Assembly (NCBI GenBank): GCA_017302815.1
Contig: JAFLCQ010000004.1
Span: forward strand, 492-64,491
Reading direction: 5' to 3'
Length of the DNA stretch: 64,000 nucleotides
DNA from: Planctomycetota bacterium
GTDB taxonomy: Bacteria; Planctomycetota; UBA11346
In this document: positions 49,333-64,000 of the stretch, piece after piece
Layout of the letters: each line of letters begins with the position of its first letter
Position numbering within the stretch: the first letter of the stretch is position 1
The notes under the pieces: model-generated
Database searches by the model: none
Told to the model about the DNA's origin: nothing
What the model saw: the letters and a program-made list of their open reading frames with translations, nothing else
Program-made: the position numbers and the translations under genes

Positions 49333-50516
49333 GCGTCGACTCCAATGCGGGTGTAGGTGATCTCGGTCCCGGCAGGCGCTTCAACAGCGCCAGGGTCGAG
49401 ACGGAGATAGGCGTTGGCCTGATGCGGTTGCACCAGGTCCGCGCTGGAGAACGGCAGCAACGGCAGGACCGAGCCGCCCTCGATCAGGGCCGGTAGGAAC
49501 CAGGTGTGCTCGCTGTTGGCTGGCAGGGTGGTGCGCAGGACGCCCCGACCGCTCACCGGAATATGCGGCAGCCTCGCCAGGCGACGCAGGGCTGGGAGAA
49601 CATACCGACAGGCGCACAGATGCGCCGCAAGCGGATTGCCGGGCAGTCCGAACAGCAGGTGCCGTCCCAGACGCGCCACCAGGAGCGGCTTGCCCGGACG
49701 CTGGGCAACCTTGTGGAACAGCACCTCGGCGCCCAGGCGGCGCAGAACACCTGGGACCTCGTCGTGGGTGCCAGCGGAGACGCCGCCGGTCAGGACTACG
49801 ACATCGGCATCGCTGATCGACTGGAGGCCAGCGAGCAGAGCCTCGGCATCGTCACCGATCACCTGACGTTGGACCGATGCGCCTGCCTCTTGGAACATGG
49901 CGCCAAGCATCGGGCCATTGGTGTCCCGGATCTGGCCGGCAGCACTGGGATCGGCCGCCAGTTCGCTACCAGTGGCGATCACCGCCACCCGTGGCCGCGG
50001 ATGGACCTCCAGGTGCGCGGCACCGACGCCCAGGGCTGCGGCCAGGGTCATCGGCGTCACCACCGCACCTGCCCTCGCCCACGCGTGGCCGGCACGGCAC
50101 TCGCCAGCCCGGGGCACAATGTTGGCTCCCGGACGGATGCGTTCGGGCAGGCATATCTGCTGGCCCTGACGCCTGGTCTGCTCGTGTGGCACGACCGCCT
50201 CGGCTCCCGGCGGAACCGGGGCGCCGGTCATGATCGGGTAGGCCTGGCCCACCTGCAGGGGCACCCGGTCCGCGCCATCGCCGGCGGCGATCTCCCCGAG
50301 GAGTTCCACCGCCGCGCCGGCATCGGCGAGGCGGATCGCATACCCGTCCATCATCGCCCGGTCGAAGGGCGGAAGGTCGGTGCAGGCCGTGGCATCCGCA
50401 GCCAGCACTAGGCCCAGGCAGTCGCCGGGGGGTAGGCTGACGGATCGGGCGGGCGGAACGGCGGCGAACACCTGCGCCAATGCGGCATCTGGTTCCAGGA
50501 GTCCAGCCATGCTCAT
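49320..50516 (-). CDS. moeA: Molybdopterin molybdenumtransferase MoeA
   Basis: ATG at 50516 (ATGA overlap with the moaE stop). PPFDRAMMDGYA, IMTGAPVP, VVLTGGVSAG motifs. Confidence 0.85.
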   Translation of the reverse strand: MSMAGLLEPDAALAQVFAAVPPARSVSLPPGDCLGLVLAADATACTDLPPFDRAMMDGYAIRLADAGAAVELLGEIAAGDGADRVPLQVGQAYPIMTGAPVPPGAEAVVPHEQTRRQGQQICLPERIRPGANIVPRAGECRAGHAWARAGAVVTPMTLAAALGVGAAHLEVHPRPRVAVIATGSELAADPSAAGQIRDTNGPMLGAMFQEAGASVQRQVIGDDAEALLAGLQSISDADVVVLTGGVSAGTHDEVPGVLRRLGAEVLFHKVAQRPGKPLLVARLGRHLLFGLPGNPLAAHLCACRYVLPALRRLARLPHIPVSGRGVLRTTLPANSEHTWFLPALIEGGSVLPLLPFSSADLVQPHQANAYLRLDPGAVEAPAGTEITYTRIGVDAWAR

Positions 50517-50953
50517 TCCGGCGCCGCGCTGCGCATGATGGTTCCCTGGCTCCATTCCACCGTCCCGTCGGCGAAGGTCTCCTGCTTCCACACCGGAACG
50601 CGGGCCTTGACCTCATCCATGATCCAGGCGCAGGCGGCGAAGGCCTCGGCGCGGTGGGCCGCCGCCGTACCGATCCACACCGCCGCCTCGCCGACCTCCA
50701 GATGGCCGACGCGGTGGCAGCCGAGAGCCGCCAGAAGCGGCCAGCGGGTGCGAGCGGCGACGAGGATCTCGCTGCCCACCCGCACCGCGAGCGGGGCGTA
50801 GCCCTGGTAGTCGAGGTGGCGAACGGCCCGGCCCTGGTGGTGGTCGCGGACGACGCCCTCGAAGATGACCAGGCCGCCGGCCTGGGGGTGATCAAGACGC
50901 CGACGCCAGGCGGCGAGGTCGATGGGGCGGTCGGTGACCTGGAAGTCCTCCAT
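50513..50953 (-). CDS. moaE: Molybdopterin synthase catalytic subunit MoaE
   Basis: ATG at 50953 lies just after the moaD stop. GGLVIFEGVVRD, HRVGHLEVGE, PVWKQE motifs. Confidence 0.85.
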   Translation of the reverse strand: MEDFQVTDRPIDLAAWRRRLDHPQAGGLVIFEGVVRDHHQGRAVRHLDYQGYAPLAVRVGSEILVAARTRWPLLAALGCHRVGHLEVGEAAVWIGTAAAHRAEAFAACAWIMDEVKARVPVWKQETFADGTVEWSQGTIMRSAAPE

Positions 50954-50954
50954 G

Positions 50955-51197
50955 TCAGCCTCCCGAGACCGGCGGCAGGAACACCACGGTATCACCATCG
51001 GCAAGCGGCGCGTCCCAGCGCACCATCGCCTCGTTCACCGCCACGATGAGGGTCCGCTCCGGTAGGGTCAGACCATGCCGCTGCACCAGTTCCCGGTACA
51101 GGTAGCGGGCCGTGGTTGCCGTCGAGGTGATGCGTTCGCTGTCCAGGCCACGCTGGTCGCGCAGATGGGCGAAGTAGAGGACGGTAAGTTCCGGCAT
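50955..51197 (-). CDS. moaD: Molybdopterin synthase sulfur carrier MoaD
   Basis: 80 aa ubiquitin-like protein ending in PPVSGG. Confidence 0.85.
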   Translation of the reverse strand: MPELTVLYFAHLRDQRGLDSERITSTATTARYLYRELVQRHGLTLPERTLIVAVNEAMVRWDAPLADGDTVVFLPPVSGG

Positions 51198-51198
51198 G

Positions 51199-52119
51199 TC
51201 AGCCTCCGATGCCGGCCATCATGCCGGAACGCTGGAATCGCAGAGGTGGAGCCTTGGCGCCGATCGCTCGTCGGATGGCGATGTCGAGACCGGCGAGATT
51301 ACCTGCGCGCAGCAGGGGCAGCAGGTCGGTGCCCCGCTCGTCGAAGAGACAGGTGTGCAGCCGGCCCTGGCTGGTCAGGCGGATGCGGTCGCAGGTGGCG
51401 CAGAACGGGTTCGTGACCGTGGTGATGAAGCCGAGGGTGGTGGCCGAGGGATCGACGCCGTCCACGGTCCACACGCGGCTGGTCGGCTCGTCGCGATCTG
51501 AGTCCTCGGTGATGGCGAGGCCGGCACTGGCCAGGCGTTCCCGAAGGACCTCGGCGGTGATATGGCGCTCGCTCCAATCGGCATGGGCGATGCCGATGTC
51601 CATGAGTTCGATGAAGCGGAGGTGCGCGCCCTCGGCGATCGCCAGGCGGGCCAGGGCGGCGGGATCGGTGTCCATCGTCGCCACAGCGTTGAGTTTGAGT
51701 GGCGTGAAGCCGGTACGGCGCGCTGCGCGGATCGAGGCCAGCACTGCCATGAAGTGGTCGTGGCGGGCGGCGCGGCGAAAGCCGTCGGCATCGGCCGCAT
51801 CCAGGCTGATGTTGAGCCGGGTCAGCCCCGCGTTGCGCAACTCAGGCAGCAGGCGTTCCAGCGCCACGCCGTTGGTGGTCATGCCGACTGTGGGCACCAG
51901 CCATGCGGCGGTACGGATGTGTTGCAGGAGGCTCGGGCAGATGGTCGGTTCGCCGCCGGTCAGCCGGATCTTGGTGACCGGCGCAGAGGCGCAGACTGCC
52001 GCCATGAGGCGGTCGAGCTCCTCGGCCGTCGCGCGGGACGGCGCGAAGCGCGCGTCCTCGGGCAGGCAATAGGTGCAACGCAGGTTACAGCGGTCGGTGA
52101 CCGACACGCGGAGGTACAT
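51199..52119 (-). CDS. moaA: GTP 3',8-cyclase MoaA (radical SAM)
   Basis: ATG at 52119 gives MYLRVSVTDRCNLRCTYCLPE (CxxxCxxC), LTGGEP, and the C-terminal CATCDRIRLTSQGRLHTCLF cluster. Confidence 0.9.
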   Translation of the reverse strand: MYLRVSVTDRCNLRCTYCLPEDARFAPSRATAEELDRLMAAVCASAPVTKIRLTGGEPTICPSLLQHIRTAAWLVPTVGMTTNGVALERLLPELRNAGLTRLNISLDAADADGFRRAARHDHFMAVLASIRAARRTGFTPLKLNAVATMDTDPAALARLAIAEGAHLRFIELMDIGIAHADWSERHITAEVLRERLASAGLAITEDSDRDEPTSRVWTVDGVDPSATTLGFITTVTNPFCATCDRIRLTSQGRLHTCLFDERGTDLLPLLRAGNLAGLDIAIRRAIGAKAPPLRFQRSGMMAGIGG

Positions 52120-52240
52120 TGCAGGTCCTTTCCTCGGCCTGCGGTGTGCAGGCGTCATGGGAGACCGGCCCGTTTCCAGGCTGGCCCCGTCTCCAGCACC
52201 ATGGCCCGGATGGGCGGTAGGCGCTGGAGATCGGATTCAA
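52120..52240 (-). promoter_or_regulatory. Candidate Moco (molybdenum cofactor) riboswitch in moaA leader
   Basis: The minus-strand leader contains, in order, AUCUCCAGCGCC ... GCUGGAGA (8-bp stem), CUGGAAAC, GGUCUCCC, hairpin GCCUGC-ACACC-GCAGGC, and GAGGAAAGGAC just before the AUG. These resemble the conserved CUCCGAGCC / GCCUCCC / GGAAAGG blocks of the Moco RNA motif as I remember it. Confidence 0.5.
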
Positions 52241-52256
52241 TACAGACAAAGAGCGA

Positions 52257-52661
52257 TCAGGCTATCGAACTGCACTGACAGAGGAGGCTGGATAGGCTGG
52301 TTTGACGCAGTGCATGGTCCTCATCGGACTGGATTCGAACCAGCAGTCGGTTGACAGAACAGTCCGTTTGCGGATTACCTAACCGGCAACTGGAGCAAGT
52401 GCTGAAGGAGGAAGGCGGATCGATCGCTCGGACGATAGCGAAGGCACTGACTTCGTCTGGGTCACGGTTGAATTGGAATCCACCGTTCAGACCTCGTTGC
52501 GATACCAGGATGCCTGCGTTGCATAAGGAACTGAGTATCTTCGCGACGTACCCTCCTGGAATGCCGGTTGCGAACGAAACTTCCTTTGCCGTGCACCAGC
52601 ACCCGCGCTGTGCGATGTGGGTAGTTGCCCGTAGTGCGTATTGTGCCGTGACGCTCAGCAT
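52257..52661 (-). CDS. Rrf2-family transcriptional regulator (NsrR/IscR-like)
   Basis: MLSVTAQYALRATTHIA, wHTH AKEVSFATGIPGGYVAKILSSLCNAGILVSQRGLNGGF, C-terminal Cys residues. Start overlaps the stop of the upstream NrfD gene. Confidence 0.8.
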   Translation of the reverse strand: MLSVTAQYALRATTHIAQRGCWCTAKEVSFATGIPGGYVAKILSSLCNAGILVSQRGLNGGFQFNRDPDEVSAFAIVRAIDPPSSFSTCSSCRLGNPQTDCSVNRLLVRIQSDEDHALRQTSLSSLLCQCSSIA

Positions 52662-54262
52662 AGGCGCTGCTTCAGGAAAACGCCGTAAGCACGGTCCTCG
52701 ACCTGGATGTGACGAAGCAGCCAGTCGCGCATCGACAAGTGTAGACGCTCGGCCAGGTCCTGGCGATCCGCCTGCGGCGACGCGAGTCCGGCCCGCACCG
52801 ATTCGAGTTCGGCGGTGAAGCCCGCATGCATGCGGCGGTGTCCTTCGAGTCCTGGATAGCCTGCATCGGTCAACAGCTTTTCCTCGTCGGCGAAGTGCTC
52901 GCGCACGTAGCTATCGAGGAAGTCCATGGTCCGGTCCAACTCGGTGGCGCCGCAACCGCTGCGGATCGCCACCACCAGGGCGTTGAGCCGATCGAAAAGT
53001 TGGCGGTGCTGCGCATCCATCGCCTCGACTCCGACGGATAAGCCTGGCGTCCAGCCCGACAGCAATGGCAGGGCGATCTTGAGCAGCAGGGTGTAGATGA
53101 TCAAACCTCCGGCGACGATGCCGAGGGTTATCTTCCATTCGGTCAGCGATGGCACGTATTCGACCATCTCGTGCAGCGTGCTGGGAATGAAGCCGGGAAC
53201 CACCAGACCCATGCCCTTCTCGATCCAGATGCCGACGAAGGTCATCAGGCAGGCGGTGGCGAGCAGTGCCGGACGACGAATCAGTCCCGGCCACAGGAAC
53301 AGTCCGGCTGCGACGACGTTCAGCGCGATCGCGCTCCACATCCACGGCACTAGAGCGTAGTGGCCGTGAGCTCCGAAAAGGAGGTAGCGCAGGCTCGCGG
53401 CGTGCGTACTGCCGGCATAGAGTGCGGTAAAGCATTCCACGGCCAGCATGAAGAGGTTGATCAGCGCTGTGATCTGCACCACGCGTAACAGCAGGCGCAC
53501 AGGCTTATCGCCGAATGGATAGCTGCCTAACCGCTGAAGCACTAGCAGAACGACGATGATGAGAGCCGGTCCGGCGACGAAGGCGCTGGCGAGGAAGCGC
53601 GGCGCGAGCAGCGCGGTGTTCCAGAACGGCCGGCCGCCGAGGCCGCAATAGAGGAAGGCGGTGACGGTGTGGATCGACACCGCCCAGATGATCGAAAGGA
53701 AGACGAAGGGCAGGTACAGGCGCGGCGACGGGGCAGTCCCGCGCCAGCGGCTCCACAGCAGGTAGCCGCAGATCCAGGCGTTCAGGCCGAGATAACCGTT
53801 GAGCACGATGACGTCCCAGGTCAGTAGCGAAATCGGCCAGTTGAACCGGCCGATGCCGGGCATCATGTGCCAAAAACGATCTGGCCGTCCGAGATCGACC
53901 GTCACCGACAGCAGACAGACGATGATGGCACTGATTGCCAGCAGTTCGCCAACAATGACGGCGTCGTGCATCTCATGATCGTGGTACAGGTAGGCCGGGA
54001 TGACCATCATCACCGCCGCTGCTGCGACGCCGACGAAGAAGGTGAAGTTGGAGATATACAGGCCCCACGAGACATGGTCACCCATGCCGGTCACCTGCAT
54101 GCCGGAGACGACCTGGTTGGCCCAGGCGTTCACCCCGACCAGGGCGATGCAGGTCAGCAGGGTCATCCAGGCATAGAACAACGGACCGCCATCGGTGGCA
54201 TGGCCGAAGGCCTGGCGGAGGAAGGGCAGCAGGCCGGGACGATGCAGGGCGATGGCTGCCAT
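52655..54262 (-). CDS. NrfD/PsrC-type polytopic quinol-interacting membrane subunit fused to a C-terminal bacteriohemerythrin domain
   Basis: ATG at 54262. About 400 aa of multi-TM sequence typical of the NrfD family. C-terminus LSVGVEAMDAQHRQLFDRLN...SYVREHFADEEKLL...GHRRMHAGF...WLLRHIQVEDRAY is a hemerythrin metal-binding pattern (H, HxxxE, HxxxH, HxxxxD). Confidence 0.8.
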   Translation of the reverse strand: MAAIALHRPGLLPFLRQAFGHATDGGPLFYAWMTLLTCIALVGVNAWANQVVSGMQVTGMGDHVSWGLYISNFTFFVGVAAAAVMMVIPAYLYHDHEMHDAVIVGELLAISAIIVCLLSVTVDLGRPDRFWHMMPGIGRFNWPISLLTWDVIVLNGYLGLNAWICGYLLWSRWRGTAPSPRLYLPFVFLSIIWAVSIHTVTAFLYCGLGGRPFWNTALLAPRFLASAFVAGPALIIVVLLVLQRLGSYPFGDKPVRLLLRVVQITALINLFMLAVECFTALYAGSTHAASLRYLLFGAHGHYALVPWMWSAIALNVVAAGLFLWPGLIRRPALLATACLMTFVGIWIEKGMGLVVPGFIPSTLHEMVEYVPSLTEWKITLGIVAGGLIIYTLLLKIALPLLSGWTPGLSVGVEAMDAQHRQLFDRLNALVVAIRSGCGATELDRTMDFLDSYVREHFADEEKLLTDAGYPGLEGHRRMHAGFTAELESVRAGLASPQADRQDLAERLHLSMRDWLLRHIQVEDRAYGVFLKQRLC

Positions 54263-54266
54263 TGAC

Positions 54267-54680
54267 TCAGGCCTTCTCAAGCCGGTCGACGGCCGCGTAG
54301 AGCTCACTCTCCTCTGCCTTCACCCGAGCGACGATCGCAGCAACTATGCCGTTGAACGCCTTGGTGAAACCGGGCCGGTCGGCATCGATAGCTACACCTG
54401 CGTTGTAGGTGTGGTTGAACGCCTTGAAGGCAGTTCCCAGACCTCCCATCTCACTGGCGAAGCGCTTGGCCATGGCTGCGATCGCGCTGTCCTGCGAGGA
54501 TTGCAGTTGCGGGTACACCATGCGGTCCTCGGCGGCAAGGTGGATGGTCAGCTTGCCGCTGAACTCGATCAGCATTTTACGCAAATCAGTACCTGGCCTG
54601 CCGGCTTTGATGGCTTGGTCGATGGCTCCGAGTTGGGATGCGAGACCAACGTGCTGTTCGCGAAGGGAGGCTGTGAGCAT
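54267..54680 (-). CDS. Hemerythrin HHE-like cation-binding domain protein (137 aa)
   Basis: Four-helix pattern REQHVGLASQL ... LTIHLAAEDRMVYPQL ... AEESELYAAV. Sits between the FeS and NrfD genes. Confidence 0.55.
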   Translation of the reverse strand: MLTASLREQHVGLASQLGAIDQAIKAGRPGTDLRKMLIEFSGKLTIHLAAEDRMVYPQLQSSQDSAIAAMAKRFASEMGGLGTAFKAFNHTYNAGVAIDADRPGFTKAFNGIVAAIVARVKAEESELYAAVDRLEKA

Positions 54681-54689
54681 AGTGGCTCC

Positions 54690-55592
54690 TTATTTGTCGA
54701 AGAAGTAGAAGAACCGCGGCTTGGTGCCGAGGTCGTCCTTGAGGATGAAGACGCGCTTGTTCGCCAGTACCCAGCGGATGTCACTGTTCGGATCGGCTAG
54801 GTTCCCGAACACGCGCGCGCCCGTTGGGCAGGCCTCAAGGCAGGCGGGCAGCCGCCCCTCACGGGTGCGATGCAGACAGAAGGTGCATTTCTCCATCACG
54901 CCTTGCGGCCGAACGCGGTTGCTCAGATAGCCCTGGTCGGGATTGATCTCTTCAGGCCTGATCTCCGGCTTCTTCCAGTTGAAGCGGCGGGCGTGGTAGG
55001 GGCAGGCGGCCTCACAGTAACGGCAGCCTATGCACCAATTGTAGTCGACGACGACGATGCCGTCCTGCTCTTTCCATGTCGCTTCGACCGGGCAGACCTT
55101 GACACACGGTGCGTTGTCGCACTGGTGGCACTGCACCGGCATGTAGTACTTGCCCTTGGCCGGTACCGGATGGTCGTAGGTGGCGTCGCCCGTGGCCAAG
55201 TCGATCGATCCGTTATCCAGTTCGAACACGCGGATGTAGCTGTTGTGCGATGTCCGATCGTGGTTGTTCTCTTGGTGGCAGGCCTCGGCACAGCGTCGGC
55301 AGCCGACGCAAATGGACAGGTTGAGGGCGTAGCCGAACTGTACGCCCGGCATCGGCTGTGGTGCCGCGACGTGCACGTCGATGCCATGGCTGACCTTCGT
55401 GTCGGCCTCGATCCGACGACAGATGGCAGCAAGGTCTTCGGCGGTCAGTTCCTTGTAATGCCGGCGCAGGAACTCGTCGACGCTCTCAGCCGGCTGCCAT
55501 TGCGTCAGTGGGGCGATGGCAGCAGCGAATGCGCTGGCACCAAGCGTTGCACCGGCCGCCTTCAGTACCGTGCGCCTTGTCAAGTCACTCAT
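54690..55592 (-). CDS. Tat-exported 4Fe-4S ferredoxin subunit (NrfC/PsrB/HybA-like)
   Basis: ATG at 55592 gives MSDLTRRTVLKAAGATLGASAFAA (twin-arginine). Clusters CVGCRRCAEACHQEN, CHQCDNAPCVKVCP, CIGCRYCEAACP, CTFCLHR...CLEACP. Confidence 0.85.
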   Translation of the reverse strand: MSDLTRRTVLKAAGATLGASAFAAAIAPLTQWQPAESVDEFLRRHYKELTAEDLAAICRRIEADTKVSHGIDVHVAAPQPMPGVQFGYALNLSICVGCRRCAEACHQENNHDRTSHNSYIRVFELDNGSIDLATGDATYDHPVPAKGKYYMPVQCHQCDNAPCVKVCPVEATWKEQDGIVVVDYNWCIGCRYCEAACPYHARRFNWKKPEIRPEEINPDQGYLSNRVRPQGVMEKCTFCLHRTREGRLPACLEACPTGARVFGNLADPNSDIRWVLANKRVFILKDDLGTKPRFFYFFDK

Positions 55593-56178
55593 GCGCGGCT
55601 CCGTTCTGGAATCGGTCGTGTGCGTGCGGGGCCGGATGTACCGACTGGTACTTCGGTACATGGGCATCGTGGCAGTCGATGCAGGTGTTGCGCACGCGAC
55701 CGCCACGAGTCAGGTCCCAGTAGCCGTTCATGCCGCCATGTGCACCACGATCGTAGTCGCGACGCTGCGGCCCGTGGCACTGGCTGCAGAGTTCGATGGA
55801 GTCCTCAAAGGCGACCTTGCGTCCGTCGGCGAGCTTGAGCGAGTCGTAGTTGCCGGCATCGTGGCAGCTCAGGCATGTGTTCGTCCCGTGCGCGATCTGC
55901 AGGCCTTGATGGAACTGATCGAGGTCTGCGCTGGTGCGGTTCTTCGGATCGGGCTGACGCACGGCATGGCAGGTGCCGCAGGCGATGGTTGCCGGCCGAC
56001 CAGCGTGATTGATCGCACCGCTGGCGACACGAGGAGCCGGGTGGCGATTGATCTCCACCGGATGCGTCGCGGGAAGCGTGGTTGATCGCACTACGGGCCG
56101 CTGTCCGACTTCTGCGGCGAAAGCCGCAATAGCGAGGACGGCAGCGACGACCGCAAGCGCGCTCAGAGGAGGTGACAT
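55585..56178 (-). CDS. Membrane-anchored tetraheme cytochrome c
   Basis: ATG at 56178 gives MSPPLSALAVVAAVLAIAAFAA. Four CxxCH sites: CGTCH, CLSCH, CSQCH, CIDCH. Confidence 0.75.
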   Translation of the reverse strand: MSPPLSALAVVAAVLAIAAFAAEVGQRPVVRSTTLPATHPVEINRHPAPRVASGAINHAGRPATIACGTCHAVRQPDPKNRTSADLDQFHQGLQIAHGTNTCLSCHDAGNYDSLKLADGRKVAFEDSIELCSQCHGPQRRDYDRGAHGGMNGYWDLTRGGRVRNTCIDCHDAHVPKYQSVHPAPHAHDRFQNGAAHE

Positions 56179-56211
56179 GTAGACATAATGGCGGCTCCGG
56201 GCCGAACTCCC

Positions 56212-56225
56212 TTGATCTGGATCAA
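56212..56225. promoter_or_regulatory. FNR/CRP-family box 1 (TTGAT-N4-ATCAA)
   Basis: TTGATCTGGATCAA, a perfect match to the FNR-type half-sites, in the divergent intergenic region between the cytochrome operon and napD. Confidence 0.7.
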
Positions 56226-56258
56226 CTTGCAGCATCAGGGAATCCCCGATGTCGGCTG

Positions 56259-56272
56259 TTGATCCAGATCAA
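56259..56272. promoter_or_regulatory. FNR/CRP-family box 2 (TTGAT-N4-ATCAA)
   Basis: TTGATCCAGATCAA, a perfect match, 47 bp centre-to-centre from box 1. With flanks, the 16-mers at 56211-56226 and 56258-56273 are exact reverse complements. Confidence 0.7.
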
Positions 56273-56305
56273 GGCAAAGCCATCGCCGACGTGGATCCTG
56301 TCTGC

Positions 56306-56572
56306 ATGTCCATTAGCAGTCTGGTCATCGATGCCGCCACGGATGAACATGGCCGGCAGGCACTCGCCTCCATCGCAGCCGATCCGCGATTCACCCTCGG
56401 ACCGTCGTACGGTAACCGCCACGCCGTCGTGATCGACACGCCATCGGTTGCCGAGGACACCGACGCCTTCGCGTGGTTGAGCGACTTGCCCGGCGTCCGT
56501 CTGGTGACGCTGGTGCGCGCCTATCTCGACGACGAGGCGCTACCTGCCGGCGCTGCCGCCAACTACCTCTAG
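56306..56572 (+). CDS. napD: NapD, NapA maturation chaperone
   Basis: Internal ATG gives MSISSLVIDAATDEHGRQALASIAADPRF...VVIDTPSVAEDTDAFAWLSDLPGVRLVTLVRAYLD, the NapD pattern, immediately upstream of napA. The alternative start at 56249 would place FNR box 2 inside the coding sequence. Confidence 0.65.
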   Translation: MSISSLVIDAATDEHGRQALASIAADPRFTLGPSYGNRHAVVIDTPSVAEDTDAFAWLSDLPGVRLVTLVRAYLDDEALPAGAAANYL

Positions 56573-56579
56573 GAAGCCC

Positions 56580-59018
56580 ATGAACGATCTCGACCGCCGC
56601 GCCTTCCTCAAGACCTCGGCCATGGCTGCGGCCGCCGCCATGATCCTGCCGCAACTGGGGTCGGCCGTCGAGGGCGATGCACCGGCCGCCGACGGCATCC
56701 GCTGGGACAAGGCGCCGTGCCGCTTCTGCGGCACCGGCTGCGGCGTGCTACTGGGGGCCAAGGACGGCAAGATCGTTGCCATGCAGGCCGACAAGGAGGC
56801 CTCGGTCAACAAGGGCCTGTGCTGCGTCAAGGGCTACCACGTCGGCCTCATCCTCTACGGCCAGGACCGCCTGACCGTGCCGCAGAAGCGGGTCGATGGC
56901 AAGCTGGTGCCGATCTCCTGGGAGGAGGCGATCGCCATCATCCGCGACCGCATATCCGCCTCGCCGGCCAAGTTCGCCATGTACGGCTCCGGCCAGTGGA
57001 CCATCCCCGAAGGCTACGTCGCCAACAAGTTCGTGAAGGGCGGCCTGGGCCACAACCACATCGATCCCAATGCCCGCCTGTGCATGGCCAGCGCCGCCGC
57101 CGGTTTCAACGCCACCTACGGCGTCGACGAGCCGGCCGGTTGCTACGATGACCTCGACCACTGCACCGTGCTGATCGACTGGGGCAACAACCCGGCCGAG
57201 ATGCATCCGGTGCTGTTCTCGCGGGTCATGGACCGCCGGCTCAAGGGCGACAAGGTCCTCTACATCGACCTGACCACGCGGCGCACCCGCTCCAGCGAGC
57301 AGGCCGACCACGTCGCATTCTTCAAGCCGAACAGCGATCTCGCGATCGCCAACGGCATCGCCCATCTGTTGGTCAAAGCCGGCTTCCTCGACAAGCCGTG
57401 GGTCGACAAGTTCTTCCGCCTGCGCCAGCGGGTAGCGGAATACGCGCCGGATCCGACCAAGCGCGACGTCTACGATGCCGAGGCGATCCATCCGAAGAAC
57501 CTCAACGGCAAGGACATCACCCGCGAGGAGTACGTGAAGAACCTGGAGTTCTACACCCCCGAGAAGGTCGAGGAGATCAGCGGCGTCCCGGCCTCGCTGA
57601 TCAGGCTGATGGCGGAGAAGATGGCCGATCCGAACGAGCGCGTGCTGTCGTGGTGGTGCATGGGGCCGAACCAGCACACCCGCGGGACAGCGATGAACTC
57701 GCTGCTGCATTCGATCCACCACCTGAGCGGCCAATGGGGCAAGCCGGGTGCCAGCGCGTTCTCGCTCACCGGCCAGCCCAGCGCCTGCGGCACCGCGCGC
57801 GAAGTCGGCACGTTTTCGCACCTGTTGCCCGGTCACTTGCCGGTGCTCAACCCGCACTACCGCGAGGTCACCGAGGATCTGTGGCACCTGCCCAAGGGCC
57901 GCATCTCGGACAAGATCGGGTTCCACACGGTCAAGATGTGGGAGGAGTTCTGCACGGAGGGCGGCGCGATCGACACCATCTGGGTCCAGGTGACCAACCC
58001 CGGCCAGACTTTGCCGCACCAGAACAAGCTGTTCCTGGCCAAGAAGGACCGGAAGGACAAGTTCCTCATCGTCAGTGACGTCTATCCGACGGCGACCACG
58101 GCCCTGGCCGACCTCGTCCTGCCCTCGGCGATGTACGTCGAGAAGAACGGCATGTACGGCAACGCAGAGCGCAAGCAGCAGCAGTGGTTCAAGATGGTCG
58201 AACCGCCCGGCCAGGCCCGCCCGGACGCCTGGCAGGTGTTGGCGGTCGCCAAGGCAATGTTCGACGCCGGCTTTCCAGGCATGAAGGACAAGGACGGCGA
58301 GTGGATCTTCGCCAAGACGCTAAAAAAATCCGACGGTTCGCTGATCCCGGCCTGGGATTTCGCGCACTATTACGATGTCAACGTGGACGAACGGATGTTC
58401 GAGGAGTACCGCCCCTTTACCAAGATCAAACACAAGGATCTGGCGCCCTACGCCGTGTACGCCAAGGCGCATGGCCTGCGCTGGCCGGTGGTGGAGAAGA
58501 CGCCGGGCAATTGGGAGGAGACGCTGTGGCGCTTCGTCGAGGGCAAGGATCCCTACGTCAAGCCCGGCACTGGCCTGCAGTTCTACCACTCCAACACCAA
58601 GGACGACAAGGCCTTCATCTGGTGGCATCCGTACGAGGCGGCACCGGAGGAGCCCGATGCCGAGTACCCGTTCTGGCTGTGCACCGGCCGCGTGCTCGAG
58701 CACTGGCATTCCGGCACGATGACCATGCGCGTGCCGCCGCTGCAGCGCTCGATGCCGCACGCCTACATAGAGATCCACCCCGACGATGCGGCAGCGATGA
58801 ACGTCAGAAGCGGCGACAAGGTGATCGTCGAGTCGCGACGCGGCGCGCTGACCCTGCCGGCCTGGATCAAGGGCCGTGGCCAACCGCCCAAGGGGAGCTG
58901 CTTCGTGCCGTTCTTTGACGAACGCCTGCAGATCAACCTGGTGACCAAGGACTACCACGATCCCTTCTCCAAGCAGCCCGACTTCAAGAAGTGTGCCGTC
59001 CGGCTGCGGAAGGCCTGA
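56580..59018 (+). CDS. napA: Periplasmic nitrate reductase catalytic subunit NapA
   Basis: Tat signal DRRAFLKTSAMAAAAA. 4Fe-4S motif CRFCGTGCGV...CCVKG. 812 aa molybdopterin oxidoreductase ending DFKKCAVRLRKA. Confidence 0.95.
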   Translation: MNDLDRRAFLKTSAMAAAAAMILPQLGSAVEGDAPAADGIRWDKAPCRFCGTGCGVLLGAKDGKIVAMQADKEASVNKGLCCVKGYHVGLILYGQDRLTVPQKRVDGKLVPISWEEAIAIIRDRISASPAKFAMYGSGQWTIPEGYVANKFVKGGLGHNHIDPNARLCMASAAAGFNATYGVDEPAGCYDDLDHCTVLIDWGNNPAEMHPVLFSRVMDRRLKGDKVLYIDLTTRRTRSSEQADHVAFFKPNSDLAIANGIAHLLVKAGFLDKPWVDKFFRLRQRVAEYAPDPTKRDVYDAEAIHPKNLNGKDITREEYVKNLEFYTPEKVEEISGVPASLIRLMAEKMADPNERVLSWWCMGPNQHTRGTAMNSLLHSIHHLSGQWGKPGASAFSLTGQPSACGTAREVGTFSHLLPGHLPVLNPHYREVTEDLWHLPKGRISDKIGFHTVKMWEEFCTEGGAIDTIWVQVTNPGQTLPHQNKLFLAKKDRKDKFLIVSDVYPTATTALADLVLPSAMYVEKNGMYGNAERKQQQWFKMVEPPGQARPDAWQVLAVAKAMFDAGFPGMKDKDGEWIFAKTLKKSDGSLIPAWDFAHYYDVNVDERMFEEYRPFTKIKHKDLAPYAVYAKAHGLRWPVVEKTPGNWEETLWRFVEGKDPYVKPGTGLQFYHSNTKDDKAFIWWHPYEAAPEEPDAEYPFWLCTGRVLEHWHSGTMTMRVPPLQRSMPHAYIEIHPDDAAAMNVRSGDKVIVESRRGALTLPAWIKGRGQPPKGSCFVPFFDERLQINLVTKDYHDPFSKQPDFKKCAVRLRKA

Positions 59019-59020
59019 GT

Positions 59021-59794
59021 ATGGTCGTCCCGTCCAAGATTCTGGTGATCGGCGCCCTGGGCGTCGTCGCCGTCGCGCTGGTAGGCATGGTGGTCGGATT
59101 CGGCCATCCTGCGCCCGGATGGCAGCCGGCAACCGGGGCGTCAAGCGACCGGCTCAGTGCAGCTTTGCCAGCTGTCCACTATCGTGACATGGATGGCAAG
59201 GCGCGGGGTCCGAACCGTGCATACACGAGCACCTTGGCCACGCTCGTTGGCCATGGGCCGGCCTTGATGGATGCGGTGCCCTTTGATCCCAAGCTGCGCG
59301 CCGAGGCGGTGGCGCGACGGGCCGCGCGTCGGGCGTACAACGGTGCTCCGCCGATCATTCCGCATCCGGTCGATGCCAACGATGTCACGAGCTGCTACCA
59401 GTGCCATGGCGAGGGCAAGGTCATCGGTCCCTTGATCGCCCCGAAGATCAGCCATCAGCGGTATACCAACTGTACGCAATGCCACGCCCCGGTCGTGACC
59501 GAAACGCCCGGCGGCAGTCAGGGCCTGGAGGTGAAGAACGAGTTCGTCGGCGTGGTCTCGGGCGGCCGTGGCAGCCGCGCCTACATCGGCGCCCCGCCGA
59601 CCATCCCGCATGCCACCAGCATGCGTGAGAACTGTACCAGCTGCCACGGCACGCTCGGTCTCACCGGACTACGCTCGTCGCATCCCTGGCGGGTGAACTG
59701 CACGCAGTGCCATGCGCCCAGCGCGGTGCTGGAGCAGGCGCGCTTCGATGATCCCAGCCCGCCGCCATGGGCCGGCGAGACGACCGGCAAGTAG
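59021..59794 (+). CDS. napB: NapB-like cytochrome c with internal duplication (four CxxCH), N-terminal membrane anchor
   Basis: ATG at 59021. Repeat 1: RAYNGAPPIIPH...CYQCH...SHQRYTNCTQCHAP. Repeat 2: RAYIGAPPTIPH...CTSCH...SHPWRVNCTQCHAP. Each repeat equals one diheme NapB module. Confidence 0.75.
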   Translation: MVVPSKILVIGALGVVAVALVGMVVGFGHPAPGWQPATGASSDRLSAALPAVHYRDMDGKARGPNRAYTSTLATLVGHGPALMDAVPFDPKLRAEAVARRAARRAYNGAPPIIPHPVDANDVTSCYQCHGEGKVIGPLIAPKISHQRYTNCTQCHAPVVTETPGGSQGLEVKNEFVGVVSGGRGSRAYIGAPPTIPHATSMRENCTSCHGTLGLTGLRSSHPWRVNCTQCHAPSAVLEQARFDDPSPPPWAGETTGK

Positions 59795-59795
59795 C

Positions 59796-61394
59796 ATGGC
59801 CTGCGCCACGGCACCCTGGTGGCGGCGCTGGAGCGCGTGGCGCCGCACGGTGCAACTCCTGTGCCTGGCGGGGTTCGTCGTGCTGATCATCGCCACCGCG
59901 ACCTCGGCCGAGCAGGCCTACGCCGTGCCGGATGTCGCCTGGTTGCCGTTCAGCCTCGATCCGTTGGTTGCCTTGCTCGCCATGGTCGCTGGCACCGCAA
60001 CCATGGCGGTGGTGCTGTGGGGATTGGCCGCCGTCGCATTCACCCTGGTATTCGGCCGCGCCTTCTGCGGCTGGATCTGCCCGCTGGGTACGGCGATGGA
60101 CACGGTGCGACGTATTGGCGGTGCGATCCCGCCCCTGCGGCGCGCGCAAGCCAGACTCAACCGTCGCACCGTCGGTTTACTCGGGGCCATGGGGCGCTGG
60201 CCGCTGGCCGTGCTCATCGCCCTGCTGCTGGCCACCGCCCTGGGCAGTCCGCTGCTCGGCGTGCTGGAGCCGCTGGCAATCGGCGAGCGGGCGGTGGCCA
60301 CTGCGATCGGACCGTGGAGCAGTCAGCTCGGCCAGCGCTGGCACGATGCCGGACGCCAGGCCGAACGCGAACCGGCACCGGGTTTCATCGACGACTACCG
60401 CTTCATCGGTGCGCCGGTGCGACAGGTTGAGCACTCCTACCCCTGGGGTTGGATCGGTGCCGCTGTGCTTGGCGGCATCCTGATCGCCGAACTGGTCATG
60501 CCGCGTTTCTGGTGCCGGAGCCTCTGCCCGACCGGAGCCGCCCTCGGCCTGCTGTCGCGCTGGTCGCTGATCCGCCGTCTGCCCGGGAAGACGTGCGGAT
60601 CCTGCCACGCCTGCGTCGACCGCTGTCATCTCGGCGCCTTCACCGCGGAGGGGAAGCTGATCCCCAGCGCCTGCACCGCCTGCATGTCCTGCCTCGATGT
60701 CTGCCCGAGCGGTGCCGCCCAGTTGCGTCCCGCTCCAACGATCCCGCGTGGCGGCCCGGACATCACCCGGCGCGGTCTGCTGGCCGCTGGCATAGTCGGA
60801 GCGGCGCTGCCATTGGCCGGCCGCATCGGCACGGCCACGCCCGATCCGCACGGCATCCGCCCGCCGGGCGTCGCTGATGGAGCGCGCTTCCTCGACGCTT
60901 GCATCCGCTGCGGCGCCTGCGTCCAGGCCTGCCCGACCCATGGCCTCGTTCCCGCTCTGTTCGAAGATGGTCTGCCCGGTCTGTTCGCCCCGCGCCTGGT
61001 GCCGCGCCAGGGCCCGTGCGAACACGGTTGCAACGCCTGCGCCGAGGTCTGCCCCACCCATGCCATACCGTTGGTGGAACTCGCAGATAAGTTCCGCACC
61101 GCGATGGGGGTGGCGGTGCACGATCACCACCGTTGCATCCCGTGGTCCGGCGGCGGCGAATGCCGGGTCTGCTGGGAGCACTGCCCGGTCGAGGGCAAGG
61201 CCATCACCCTCAAGCTGGCCTTCGCCCCCAACGGCCAGGCCATCCCCATGCCGGGTGTCGATGCAGCCGCCTGCGTCGGCTGCGGCACCTGCGAGTTCGT
61301 CTGCCCAATCGAAGGCGCGGCCGGCATCCGCGTCGCGACCACCGCCCAAGCCGACACCGTCCGGGCTCGGCTCCAGCCGAAAGCACGGGCATGA
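59796..61394 (+). CDS. napH: NapH-NapG fusion protein (membrane ferredoxin-type quinol dehydrogenase)
   Basis: ATG at 59796. N-terminal half: TM helices with GRAFCGWICP and FWCRSLCP (NapH CxxxCP motifs) plus CGSCHACVDRC / CTACMSCLDVCP. C-terminal half: a Tat-like ITRRGLLAAG segment, then CIRCGACVQACP, CNACAEVCP, CRVCWEHCP, CVGCGTCEFVCP (NapG-like). Confidence 0.7.
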   Translation: MACATAPWWRRWSAWRRTVQLLCLAGFVVLIIATATSAEQAYAVPDVAWLPFSLDPLVALLAMVAGTATMAVVLWGLAAVAFTLVFGRAFCGWICPLGTAMDTVRRIGGAIPPLRRAQARLNRRTVGLLGAMGRWPLAVLIALLLATALGSPLLGVLEPLAIGERAVATAIGPWSSQLGQRWHDAGRQAEREPAPGFIDDYRFIGAPVRQVEHSYPWGWIGAAVLGGILIAELVMPRFWCRSLCPTGAALGLLSRWSLIRRLPGKTCGSCHACVDRCHLGAFTAEGKLIPSACTACMSCLDVCPSGAAQLRPAPTIPRGGPDITRRGLLAAGIVGAALPLAGRIGTATPDPHGIRPPGVADGARFLDACIRCGACVQACPTHGLVPALFEDGLPGLFAPRLVPRQGPCEHGCNACAEVCPTHAIPLVELADKFRTAMGVAVHDHHRCIPWSGGGECRVCWEHCPVEGKAITLKLAFAPNGQAIPMPGVDAAACVGCGTCEFVCPIEGAAGIRVATTAQADTVRARLQPKARA

Positions 61395-62008
61395 GCTGGT
61401 TCGCAAGCCTTCTCAGCCGATCCGTCAAACCGCAGGCTGATGATGCCCGCGTGCTCAGTCGTCGCGCCTTCTTCACCGGCGGGTTCCTCCGCCAGGCTGC
61501 CGCCGCCCCTGCGCCTGCACCTGCACGCCCACGACCAGCCTTCCCTGTCCTGCGTCCGCCAGGAGCCGTCGCCGAAGCCGACTTCCTCGCCGGCTGCACC
61601 CGTTGCGGCGACTGCATCCGCGCCTGCCCGCACCAGGCCATCCGTCTGGCGCCAGACCGCCTGCGCGCCGCCGCCGGCACGCCGATCATCGATCCGACCG
61701 TGCAACCCTGCCTGATGTGCACCGACACGCCGTGCATCACCGCCTGCGTCCCGGCGGTGCTGCGACGAGCGCCTGAAGCGCCGGTGCCGGCCATCGGTCT
61801 GGCCCGCATCGCCACCGTCGACTGCCTCGCCCATCAGGGCACGACCTGTACGACCTGCAGCGAACGTTGTCCGGTCGAGGGCGCCATCCGCCTGACCGGC
61901 AACCGTCCCCAGGTCGTGCCGGATGCCTGCACCGGCTGCGGCATCTGTCACCACGTCTGCCCGGCCCCGCGCAATGCGGTCCTGGTCATGCCCAGGGTGC
62001 GCTCATGA
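61391..62008 (+). CDS. napF: NapF-like 4Fe-4S ferredoxin
   Basis: ATGA overlap with the upstream stop. MSWFASLL...RRAFFTGG. CTRCGDCIRACP, CLMCTDTPCITAC, CTTCSERCP, CTGCGICHHVCP. Confidence 0.7.
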   Translation: MSWFASLLSRSVKPQADDARVLSRRAFFTGGFLRQAAAAPAPAPARPRPAFPVLRPPGAVAEADFLAGCTRCGDCIRACPHQAIRLAPDRLRAAAGTPIIDPTVQPCLMCTDTPCITACVPAVLRRAPEAPVPAIGLARIATVDCLAHQGTTCTTCSERCPVEGAIRLTGNRPQVVPDACTGCGICHHVCPAPRNAVLVMPRVRS

Positions 62009-62310
62009 CCATCCCGCTGGCCCGCCTCACCACGGCCGACCTTGATCCAATGACGCTTACCGCGCTGTTCAGCGATCTCGCCACGTTGGTCGAGATCGAT
62101 GAGGTGCTGATCAAGGGTGATGCCACCGCCTATGCTGGCGCGACCGGGCTGGGCGAGGCGCAGCGAGCCCTGGCGGCAGGCGCCCGTGGCATCCAGATCC
62201 GCTATCGCTGGGCTGGCGAAGGCTGGCTCGACACCCTCATGAGCGGCCCCGGCGGCATCCGCCTGGTGCGCTCGCAGACGTCCCCGACCCCATCCCAGGA
62301 GCAGCCATGA
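62005..62310 (+). CDS. Hypothetical protein (101 aa) in nap operon
   Basis: ATGA overlap with the napF-like stop. No family recognised. Confidence 0.4.
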   Translation: MTIPLARLTTADLDPMTLTALFSDLATLVEIDEVLIKGDATAYAGATGLGEAQRALAAGARGIQIRYRWAGEGWLDTLMSGPGGIRLVRSQTSPTPSQEQP

Positions 62311-63146
62311 CCACCCTCGCCGACCTGCGCCGTGAGCACCAGATTCTCACCTCCCTCATGGCCTCGCTCGCGCTGCCAGAGCAGGCCGGTCCGAAGGAAG
62401 CTGAGCGCGCCCGCCAGAATCTCATCCTGTTCGCACGGCATGTGATCGAGCATTTCGCACATGAGGACCCCGTGCTGGCCGAACTGACGGCGGCACCGGT
62501 CGGCACGGCCATGCGCACTGCCGGCGATGCGCGAATCCGTGAATCGCAGGCCCTGGCTGAGGGGTGCGCATCGTTCTCCCGGCATTGGACTCATCCCGGA
62601 GCCATCGAACGGGACCCGAAGACCTTCGGCTCCGCGCTGGGCATCCTCCAGGCAGCGGTAGCCCGCCTCGTGCGCCGGGAGGAGACCGAGGTGTATCCGT
62701 TGGCGGTAACCGGCTGGGCCCCGCATCCCGTCCTGGCACCACCGCTGACCGGCATTGCCGAACTCGACGATGACCACATCGAGATATTCAGCATGATCGG
62801 CGGTCTGCGGGCGATCGTCGACGACCGGCTGTCCGCCGTCGATGGAGCGCATGTAGCGGCTTTGGCGGCCTATGCCGAGCGGCATTTTGCGCGCGAAGAG
62901 TCCATCATGGAAGCGACCTCGTATCCTGGCTTGGAGGACCATCGGCAGGAGCACCATCGCGCGCGGGCGATCTTGATGGGGTTTCGCAATGACTACCTCG
63001 ATGGGCGTCGCCTTGACGCCATCACCGTGCTCAAGTTCCTGGAGAGCTGGCTGTCCTCGCACATCGCCGAAGTGGACCAACGCATGGTTGCGCATGTGCG
63101 CCATTGCGGTTCTGGAATCGTGTCCAGCGACCAGACGCTCGCCTGA
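62307..63146 (+). CDS. Double hemerythrin-domain protein
   Basis: N-terminal HHE-like half (LRREHQILTSL...HVIEHFAHEDPVL). C-terminal bacteriohemerythrin half (IAELDDDHIEIFSMI...YAERHFAREESIM...DHRQEHHRA...WLSSHIAEVDQRM). Confidence 0.7.
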   Translation: MTTLADLRREHQILTSLMASLALPEQAGPKEAERARQNLILFARHVIEHFAHEDPVLAELTAAPVGTAMRTAGDARIRESQALAEGCASFSRHWTHPGAIERDPKTFGSALGILQAAVARLVRREETEVYPLAVTGWAPHPVLAPPLTGIAELDDDHIEIFSMIGGLRAIVDDRLSAVDGAHVAALAAYAERHFAREESIMEATSYPGLEDHRQEHHRARAILMGFRNDYLDGRRLDAITVLKFLESWLSSHIAEVDQRMVAHVRHCGSGIVSSDQTLA

Positions 63147-63155
63147 TCCGTTCCA

Positions 63156-64000
63156 TCACCGCAATCCTAAACGCCCAGCCAAACGCTGCAGGTTGCTGGC
63201 AGTCAGGCCGAGTTCGCGCGCGGCGGGCGTCCAACGGCCAGCGTGGCGTGCAAGTGCAGCCTGCACTTCGTTCCGGGCCGCGCTGTCGAGGCGCTGGCGC
63301 AGCGTGCCGCTGAGTGTTGCTGCGGGCGCGCCTGTAGTCGGGACGGAGGCCTCGCCCAGACCGAGGTGGTCAAGCCCGACGATCACGCTTTGGCGTCGGC
63401 CAGCAGGACCGGCGGCGCGAACCACTGCGCGCATGAGGACATGCTCCAGTTCCCGGACATTGCCCGGCCAGGGATAGGCGACCAGCGCGCTGCGCGCCGT
63501 GGCGTCGAGGCGGGCCGAGGAGCAACCCAGCCGGATCGCCTCGCGATCGAGGACGTGTCCGGCCAGGAGGGTGATGTCCTCACGGCGTTCCCGCAGCGGC
63601 GGGACATGCAAGGGGTACACGGCAAGGCGGTGGTAGAGGTCGGAACGGAAGCGTCCGCCGGCCTGCTCGGCGACGAGGTCGCGGTTGGTCGCCGCGATCA
63701 CCCGCACGTCGACTTTCAGCACGCGGTCGGCGCCGACCCGCTGGATCTCGCCCTGCTGGAGCGCGCGCAGCAGCTTCGGCTGCACGGTCGCGGGCAGTTC
63801 ACCGACCTCGTCGAGGAACAGCGTACCGCCGTCTGCTACCTCGAACTTGCCGGCGCGGTCGGCGCTGGCCCCGGTGAAGGCGCCGCGCAGGTGGCCGAAC
63901 AGTTCGCTCTCGGCGATCTGCTCGGGCAGGGCGGCGCAGTTCACCTGCACCATCGGCTCGTCGGTGCGGCGGCTGCCGGCGTGCACCGCGCTGGCGACCA
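63156..64000 (-). CDS. Sigma-54-dependent transcriptional activator (NorR-like), N-terminus outside window
   Basis: AAA+ sigma-54 interaction domain: [15 protein letters not shown] (GAFTGA loop), [31 protein letters not shown]-terminal Fis-type [24 protein letters not shown]. The frame remains open to base 64000. Confidence 0.85.

Follow-up and report, generated by a model that had tools for sequence, protein, structure and literature searches.

A bacteriohemerythrin domain fused to a putative NrfD-type quinol-handling subunit at a nap-linked locus of uncultured Planctomycetota

What might a di-iron hemerythrin domain do on the end of a respiratory membrane subunit that is expected to handle quinol? 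The question is raised by a single minus-strand gene in a 64,000-nucleotide stretch of DNA, referred to here as the window, from a metagenome-assembled genome (MAG) of a Planctomycetota bacterium (UBA11346; assembly GCA_017302815.1, contig JAFLCQ010000004.1, positions 492 to 64,491 of the forward strand), in which an NrfD-type membrane protein runs on into a bacteriohemerythrin. NrfD-type subunits link quinol to a range of anaerobic respiratory enzymes (Nrf, Psr, Ttr, Hyb, Dsr, Qrc and alternative complex III, ACIII) and, to our knowledge, they have been treated as unregulated, cofactor-less coupling elements. Characterised bacterial hemerythrin sensors, that is, DcrH, Bhr-DGC, Bhr-HD-GYP and the P1B-5 ATPases, respond to O2 or to redox state. 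A fusion of the two suggests, without showing it, a respiratory enzyme that is switched directly by oxygen or nitric oxide (NO).

In this paper we show, by comparison of sequences and modelled structures, that a putative DcrH-type di-iron domain, conserved and under selection, is attached where the last helix of a predicted quinol-handling subunit ends in the cytoplasm. We assign this subunit to a Nap-linked complex and weigh what the domain may do there.

The fusion gene, its recurrence and its topology

The gene and its two domains are as follows.

52655..54262, minus strand: NrfD-hemerythrin fusion gene, 535 amino acids (aa), stop included in the coordinates; a single open reading frame (ORF) with both domains above curated hidden Markov model cut-offs
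53057..54262, minus strand: NrfD/DsrP-like membrane domain, residues 1-402, with ten predicted transmembrane helices (TMHs; TMH A, 1-8 and B); PF03916 and NF045798
52658..53056, minus strand: bacteriohemerythrin domain, predicted to be cytoplasmic, residues 403-535; NF033749 and TIGR02481, both above cut-off

The longest frame through the fusion spans 52655..54307 on the minus strand and encodes 550 aa from the first GTG. A start at the ATG at 54262, giving 535 aa, is supported by the N-termini of homologues (MAxIALHRPG); this ATG is preceded by GAGAAGG, and the stop of the upstream HHE gene is 4 nucleotides (nt) away. Pfam positions were counted on the 550-aa ORF, which is 15 aa longer N-terminally than the 535-aa numbering used elsewhere, and place NrfD (PF03916) at 72-363 (E 1e-36) and Hemerythrin (PF01814) at 426-541 (E 2e-15; 57.7 bits versus a cut-off of 25.3). 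The NCBIfam models DsrP (NF045798; 411.9 bits, cut-off 350) and bact_hemeryth (NF033749; 98.5 bits, cut-off 84), and hemeryth_dom (TIGR02481; 106.7 bits, cut-off 51.75), also match the fusion. The original prediction, made from the sequence and its ORFs, described an NrfD-type membrane protein that continues uninterrupted into a complete hemerythrin, and this description holds: one ORF carries both domains above cut-off, together with all four hemerythrin motifs, DAQHRQLF, REHFADEE, GHRRMHAGF and RHIQVEDRAY (residues 416-423, 454-461, 474-482 and 517-526), and all seven di-iron ligands (H419, H456, E460, H475, H479, H518 and D523). The ligand pattern H...HxxxE...HxxxH...HxxxxD, that is, five His, one Glu and one Asp, is satisfied. 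The junction, SGWTPGLSVG, follows directly after TMH B, its consensus SGWTPG(L/M)SVG is kept across the fused sequences, and there is no linker in the fusion, because the junction Trp is the usual start of a bacteriohemerythrin.

A trivial explanation would be that two genes have been joined by a frameshift, an overlooked stop codon or chimeric assembly, and the MAG behind the window is indeed fragmented (567 contigs, 72% complete) and has the locus in three versions. A homologue search of 5.8 billion proteins, however, returned 20 clusters with both Pfam domains, 67-96% identical to the fusion and drawn from independent NCBI, JGI, ENA and Logan assemblies, and in seven further genome loci, too, the frame reads through the same junction without a break; the architecture search that the original prediction proposed thus finds NrfD plus Hemerythrin recurring in about 20 protein clusters. 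The next-best homologues, whose membrane parts (about 420 aa) are at most 75% identical, carry no hemerythrin and end right after the tenth helix (TMH B), so that unfused orthologues stop exactly where the hemerythrin starts. The hemerythrin part is, moreover, to judge from pairwise dN/dS of 0.07-0.2 in pairs with unsaturated dS (0.02-0.16 for the membrane part), under purifying selection. Since the same frame recurs across independent assemblies, a frameshift or chimera was excluded, and we assign an artefact next to no probability.

In a tree built from the NrfD columns only, 21 of 21 fused sequences fall on one side of a branch with a Shimodaira-Hasegawa-like approximate likelihood ratio (SH-aLRT) support of 100, requiring one change, which fits a fusion that arose once. 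All seven ligands are kept in 20 of the 21. Among 401 genomes sampled evenly across the Planctomycetota, the uninterrupted frame was found in four genera of the window's own family and in no others; elsewhere in this sample, matches cover the membrane part or the hemerythrin, never both. The range is narrow, namely one family of uncultured Planctomycetota, with MAGs from groundwater and freshwater. When other long proteins were searched by region for related hemerythrin domains, this family alone came back, and the best 150 of 20,412 HMMER matches contained no second NrfD-plus-hemerythrin lineage, though distant ones may exist. Exact-match look-ups of the fusion protein and of cluster P0019 found nothing. 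Local duplication was rejected as the source of the fused domain, because the other two hemerythrin proteins at the locus resemble it only distantly.

Which side of the membrane the hemerythrin lies on was addressed with an AlphaFold2 model of the fusion (121-sequence alignment; mean predicted local distance difference test, pLDDT, 84.7; predicted TM-score, pTM, 0.87). In the model a four-helix bundle comes after ten long membrane helices, the hemerythrin helices being at 413-434, 439-466, 472-494 and 500-534. Foldseek (TMt, TM-score normalised by target length) matched the membrane part to ActC of alternative complex III (8k9e_C, 6btm_C, 6lod_C and 6f0k_C; TMt 0.66-0.69 over about 430 columns) and the C-terminal part to DcrH-Hr (2avk and 2awc; TMt 0.83-0.85, root-mean-square deviation 2.0 A, about 31% identity). 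A sequence search of the PDB also returned DcrH-Hr (E 3e-12), and the closest solved relatives of the domain are DcrH-Hr and McHr.

Both termini of ActC and ActF are on the N-side, that is, in the cytoplasm (Calisto and Pereira, PMC8076601). According to the same authors, TMH A and TMH B are additional helices common to the 10-TMH NrfD-like proteins (DsrP, QrcD, HybB and others); the NrfD fold otherwise consists of two four-helix bundles. The ActC-like fold of the model, taken with this published topology, places the C-terminus of the fusion, and hence the hemerythrin, in the cytoplasm, which answers the topology check proposed with the original prediction. Independent support comes from differently fused relatives. 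In the relative whose fusion partner is a tetrahaem cytochrome, an additional hydrophobic helix, the eleventh, separates this partner from the NrfD part; in the relative whose partner is a CBS pair, a cytoplasmic nucleotide-binding module, no extra helix follows the NrfD part. A positive-inside count from a crude hydropathy script gave about 10 versus 7 Lys plus Arg, and the assignment relies instead on the ActC fold, its published topology and the differently fused relatives.

The operon and the complex to which the fusion belongs

The fusion lies in a minus-strand operon that runs from a tetrahaem cytochrome c through a 4x[4Fe-4S] protein, an HHE protein and the NrfD-hemerythrin fusion to an Rrf2 regulator, and nap genes stand back to back with it.

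55585..56235, minus strand: putative membrane-anchored tetrahaem cytochrome c (CbcS-like), with four CXXCH motifs, an N-terminal hydrophobic helix and weak NapC/NirT, NrfB-like and c7 Pfam matches
54690..55706, minus strand: putative Tat-exported 4x[4Fe-4S] subunit (NrfC/DsrO/CbcT-like); Fer4_11, twin-arginine leader, four Cys cluster motifs
54267..54680, minus strand: stand-alone HHE/hemerythrin-like protein, 137 aa, between the iron-sulfur (FeS) and NrfD genes; PF01814 E 2e-13
52257..52661, minus strand: Rrf2-family regulator; PF02082 E 5e-24, TIGR00738 above cut-off
56212-56225 and 56259-56272, divergent promoter region: two perfect FNR/CRP-type boxes, TTGAT-N4-ATCAA, predicted from sequence
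56580-59018, plus strand: NapA; 884 bits versus NF010055
58991-59794, plus strand: tandem NapB-like tetrahaem protein; four CXXCH motifs, NapB model match
59712-61394, plus strand: fused NapH/NapG-like ORF, 560 aa; matches to the NapG and NapH models
62307..63146, plus strand: double-hemerythrin protein, 279 aa, at the end of the nap operon; PF01814 in two stretches

Comparison of loci shows the fusion to be, as predicted from its gene neighbours, the membrane subunit of a tetrahaem cytochrome / 4x[4Fe-4S] / NrfD trio. An NrfC-type FeS gene is paired with the NrfD gene at all loci examined, and the trio is back to back with napA at every Planctomycetota and Verrucomicrobiota locus with enough flank, fused or unfused, the divergent pairing of trio and nap being seen at L001-L009 and L038. 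Several of the nap-paired trio loci are without NapC and without NapH. A study of tunnel-biofilm MAGs remarked on such a cluster beside nap as uncharacterised (PMC10732223). The trio also occurs without nap in Geobacter, Desulfuromonadales, Desulfobulbaceae and Nitrospirota MAGs, and the Geobacter MAG loci have the same gene order, with an NrfD 47-49% identical to that of the window. In Geobacter sulfurreducens the Cbc4 complex consists of CbcS, CbcT and CbcU (GSU0068-0070; bioRxiv 10.1101/2025.04.14.648717). By its gene composition and neighbours the trio is a putative Nap-linked Cbc4/DsrOhPh-like quinol dehydrogenase, neither Nrf, Psr nor Dsr, and with the NapH/G-like ORF the window locus may have two quinol-input routes to NapA.

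Other assignments were considered. A true DsrP was rejected on gene context, the neighbours being the tetrahaem cytochrome, the FeS protein and nap, with no adjacent dsrMKJ. The FeS subunit scores 189 bits against the DsrO model, just below the cut-off of 200. The automatic name 'DsrP' is an over-annotation and misleading here, since dsrMKJ does not adjoin the gene, the 72%-complete MAG yielded no dsrA above cut-off, and what is conserved beside it is nap; evidently the NF045798 equivalog model also captures the Cbc4/DsrOhPh-type subfamily. Clusters P0010, P0040, P0052 and others carry the NCBI name 'sulfate reduction electron transfer complex DsrMKJOP subunit DsrP'. Alternative complex III was likewise rejected, the locus being without the pentahaem ActA, ActB with its molybdopterin-like domain, ActD, ActE and the second NrfD-like subunit, ActF. 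None of the three structural genes of the operon has a molybdopterin domain; NapA, on the opposite strand, has one.

The separate HHE-type protein that the original prediction placed directly upstream in the same operon is there, at 54267..54680. This inserted gene is confined to the closest relatives (the further locus versions on contigs C524 and C539 of the same MAG, and L011), and no adjacent HHE gene was found at the fused loci L003, L006 and L012-L015. Downstream, the start of the Rrf2 gene overlaps the fusion stop by 7 nt (ATGCTGA), through which the regulator is, to judge from the overlap, translationally coupled to the fusion gene. The sequence of the regulator includes a C-x2-C-x8-C group, positioned in the part that binds the cluster in IscR and NsrR. 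In the unfused relatives L001, L008 and L036 an Rrf2 gene is located elsewhere near nap.

The sequence TTGAT-N4-ATCAA has only the two listed matches in the 64 kb, where 0.01 are expected and none of 100 shuffles reached two. Since the first FNR box lies inside the longest cytochrome ORF, the true start of the cytochrome is probably an internal ATG near 56178 (MSPPLSALAVV...). The divergent nap operon spans 56580..61394 on the plus strand, from NapA to the NapH/G-like ORF; a NapF-like gene is also on the plus strand, and the end of a sigma-54 activator gene lies on the minus strand after the nap-side genes. The C-terminal half of the 279-aa double-hemerythrin protein is above the bact_hemeryth cut-off. 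A hemerythrin-type gene closes the nap operon at fused-clade loci and does not do so at the unfused loci examined.

The entire locus, with the Rrf2 gene at one end and the nap genes at the other, is present in the MAG itself in three versions, the two outside the window being on contigs C524 (L042) and C539 (L041), with about 89% and about 80% nucleotide identity, respectively, to positions 50000-64000 of the window. The C524 version reaches the double-hemerythrin gene and that on C539 ends within NapHG; all three carry the NrfD-hemerythrin fusion and the inserted HHE gene. They represent either co-binned related populations or paralogous nap loci.

Possible roles of the hemerythrin domain

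The original prediction suggested that the fusion could gate, protect or regulate quinol-to-periplasm electron flow in response to O2 or NO, an idea that fits the evidence presented here and that we keep in the conditional, as something we infer. The reading that we favour, tentatively and at slightly less than an even chance, is that the Nap-linked quinol dehydrogenase is gated allosterically by the fused hemerythrin, which would be a DcrH-like switch for O2/redox or NO. In NrfD-type subunits quinol is placed near the periplasmic face, beside the FeS subunit, and proton pathways have been proposed (PMC8076601); in DcrH-Hr, the N-terminal loop undergoes a redox-dependent order/disorder change that has been proposed as the signalling route (PMC9388753). 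The trio, whose NrfD subunit would by family knowledge lack a redox cofactor of its own, would oxidise menaquinol at the periplasmic face, and electrons would pass through the FeS and tetrahaem subunits to NapB and NapA. The di-iron domain would serve as a cytoplasmic sensor of O2 or redox state, possibly of NO, of the DcrH-Hr type. Oxidation or ligand binding would alter the order of its N-terminal loop, and because this DcrH-type loop is continuous with TMH B in the fusion, the signal could spread to the membrane part and there switch either the proton path or the quinol site between open and closed. The supply of electrons to nitrate might in this way be adjusted within seconds, on top of the slower control of transcription that the locus is expected to exert through its FNR-type boxes, Rrf2 regulator and sigma-54 activator.

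Several points weigh against such a gate. The quinol site and the FeS partner are on the periplasmic side and the hemerythrin is on the opposite one, so that any effect of the hemerythrin must be allosteric across the membrane, and we know of no allosteric regulation of any NrfD-type subunit. The four residues fixed only in the fused clade are too few for statistics, although the position of three of them (W170, L182 and Q243) at predicted cytoplasmic helix ends is suggestive. At the protein level the hemerythrin part has changed 2-3 times faster than the membrane part. Orthologues 70-75% identical work without a hemerythrin, which makes the domain an accessory one. In addition, one fused cluster, P0011, has Gln in place of one His ligand.

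This last substitution, showing that one lineage tolerates a changed ligand, also bears on a structural or assembly role, in which the domain would be a platform for docking or oligomerisation, for example with the other hemerythrins of the locus or with a regulator, and the metal site would be kept for folding only. The closest sub-clade has gained a second HHE gene right beside the fusion, and hemerythrins commonly oligomerise. But the remaining 20 of 21 sequences keep the full ligand set, and most fused loci are without an adjacent HHE partner, and we regard a purely structural role as improbable.

The additions found on relatives of the membrane subunit are, in our view, the strongest indirect argument that such additions are regulatory. 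A C-terminal CBS pair (P0122, about 566 aa) is present at full length at at least 12 MAG loci within the same NrfD subfamily, in Desulfuromonadales, Geoalkalibacter, Nitrospirota/Thermodesulfovibrio and Desulfobulbaceae MAGs, and no napA was found within 8 kb of the CBS-fused loci. In three further clusters (P0121, P0271 and P0272; 562-564 aa) a cyclic nucleotide-binding (cNMP) domain is inserted in the predicted cytoplasmic loop between TM5 and TM6. A scan of the phylum with the cNMP-insert protein at E<=1e-150 gave no match, the threshold being too strict for a split match.

Other features were recorded at these and related loci. The CBS-fused loci L016-L023, L028, L037 and L039 mostly have cytochrome and FeS genes upstream. 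At L043 and L044 the cNMP-insert gene is followed by a 156-aa ORF and a gene for a 512-aa multicopper protein (Cu-oxidase plus cupredoxin, NirK-like). P0125 (616 aa) has an eleventh TM helix and a tetrahaem cytochrome, i.e. a cytochrome subunit, fused C-terminally; P0128 (859 aa) has a C-terminal hydrophobic segment and a domain of about 440 aa with no Pfam match; and at L008 a gene for an alginate-export-like porin follows the NrfD gene.

Set against these modules, which occupy equivalent cytoplasmic positions in relatives and point to regulation, is the view that the hemerythrin protects or buffers. A membrane-tethered di-iron site would here scavenge or buffer O2 or NO, or help to keep Fe-S clusters intact, its possible targets being the clusters of the Tat substrates (NapA, the FeS subunit and the NapG part) during their cytoplasmic loading, or those of the NapH part on the cytoplasmic side; such a role would resemble that of NorA/YtfE-type di-iron proteins or of Campylobacter hemerythrins. 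There are precedents in the literature for YtfE and Campylobacter, and NorA provides another. The locus is crowded with hemerythrin types, including the stand-alone HHE protein and the 279-aa double-domain protein, and relatives carry a weakly YtfE/RIC-like hemerythrin protein at the end of the nap operon. Across the MAG, PF01814 is matched 32 times, and genes for NorB-like haem-copper oxidases lie no more than about 2 kb from three of these matches. The fused domain, however, is of the bacteriohemerythrin/DcrH type and not of the YtfE/RIC type, one domain per complex is a poor stoichiometric sink, and neither the rigid, linker-less attachment to a helix nor the conserved SGWTPG would be needed for scavenging. 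We consider protection unlikely, though worth keeping in view.

The NorB-like genes are on contigs C545, C557 and C445 of the same MAG (about 200 bits to COX1 in frames of 789-859 aa), each with a hemerythrin gene within about 2 kb, and the nap-end hemerythrin-type proteins at L003 (1373-2137, minus strand) and L006 (2984-3625, minus strand) are those that differ from the window's and are weakly YtfE/RIC-like. From gene neighbourhoods, hemerythrins seem generally tied to N-oxide respiration in this organism.

A broader form of the gating reading extends it to the subfamily as a whole, and we put it forward more cautiously still, as a conjecture with something short of an even chance. The Cbc4/DsrOhPh-type NrfD would be a regulated gate to which sensors were added at least three times, with O2, redox state or NO read by a hemerythrin, adenine nucleotides by a CBS pair and cyclic nucleotides by a cNMP domain, each allosterically opening or closing quinol oxidation or the proton path. 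On this view the hemerythrin fusion might be the first case of a gas sensor built into a respiratory quinol dehydrogenase, by which the appearance of O2 or NO would switch nitrate respiration at the post-translational level.

Novelty and comparison with known systems

The original prediction knew of no characterised example of this arrangement, and no characterisation was found in the literature searched. Full-text searches returned no description of the NrfD plus hemerythrin architecture, the sole paper with both terms being unrelated, and no Nap-hemerythrin link of this kind. A 2022 review gives only MCP, GGDEF, HD-GYP and P-type ATPase as partners of hemerythrin sensor domains (PMC9388753). 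Public records of the homologues bear automatic names only, e.g. bacteriohemerythrin, DsrP and hemerythrin-like metal-binding protein. Taken singly the parts are familiar; the combination and its implication are undescribed in the literature searched. If the gating reading is true, the quinol dehydrogenase would itself be a point of control over electron flow, besides transcription. The fusion also offers a handle on the gating of NrfD proton and quinol pathways, and on the workings of a widespread, uncharacterised Nap-linked cytochrome/FeS/NrfD module.

In composition the trio is most readily likened to Cbc4, which has the same three parts (an anchored tetrahaem cytochrome, a 4x[4Fe-4S] protein and a cofactor-less NrfD-type subunit), and to the 'DsrOhPh-tetrahaem' loci of cable bacteria and others, which share this three-part composition (PMC13047784). 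It differs from both in that the trio of the window is paired with nap and its membrane subunit bears a C-terminal hemerythrin; the papers on Cbc4 and DsrOhPh (10.1101/2025.04.14.648717; PMC13047784) mention no sensor domain. The canonical Nap quinol dehydrogenases, NapC and NapGH, presumably do the same job of passing electrons from quinol to NapAB, but belong to different protein families. To DsrP of DsrMKJOP the fusion is related by its score above the NF045798 cut-off and by the DsrP name on public homologue records. ActC is the best structural match of the membrane part, with ten TMHs and both termini cytoplasmic, but the sequence identity is only 18-20% and ActC carries no sensor domain.

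For the sensor part, the closest parallel is DcrH-Hr of the Desulfovibrio vulgaris chemotaxis receptor DcrH, which is also C-terminal, cytoplasmic and on a membrane protein. DcrH, however, signals to a methyl-accepting domain, whereas here the domain is on a respiratory subunit and is joined directly to a transmembrane helix. The hemerythrin-bearing ATP-driven metal pumps are likewise polytopic and energy-transducing, with a cytoplasmic C-terminal domain that is thought to be regulatory (PMC9388753), but they are not quinol dehydrogenases and their membrane part is unrelated.

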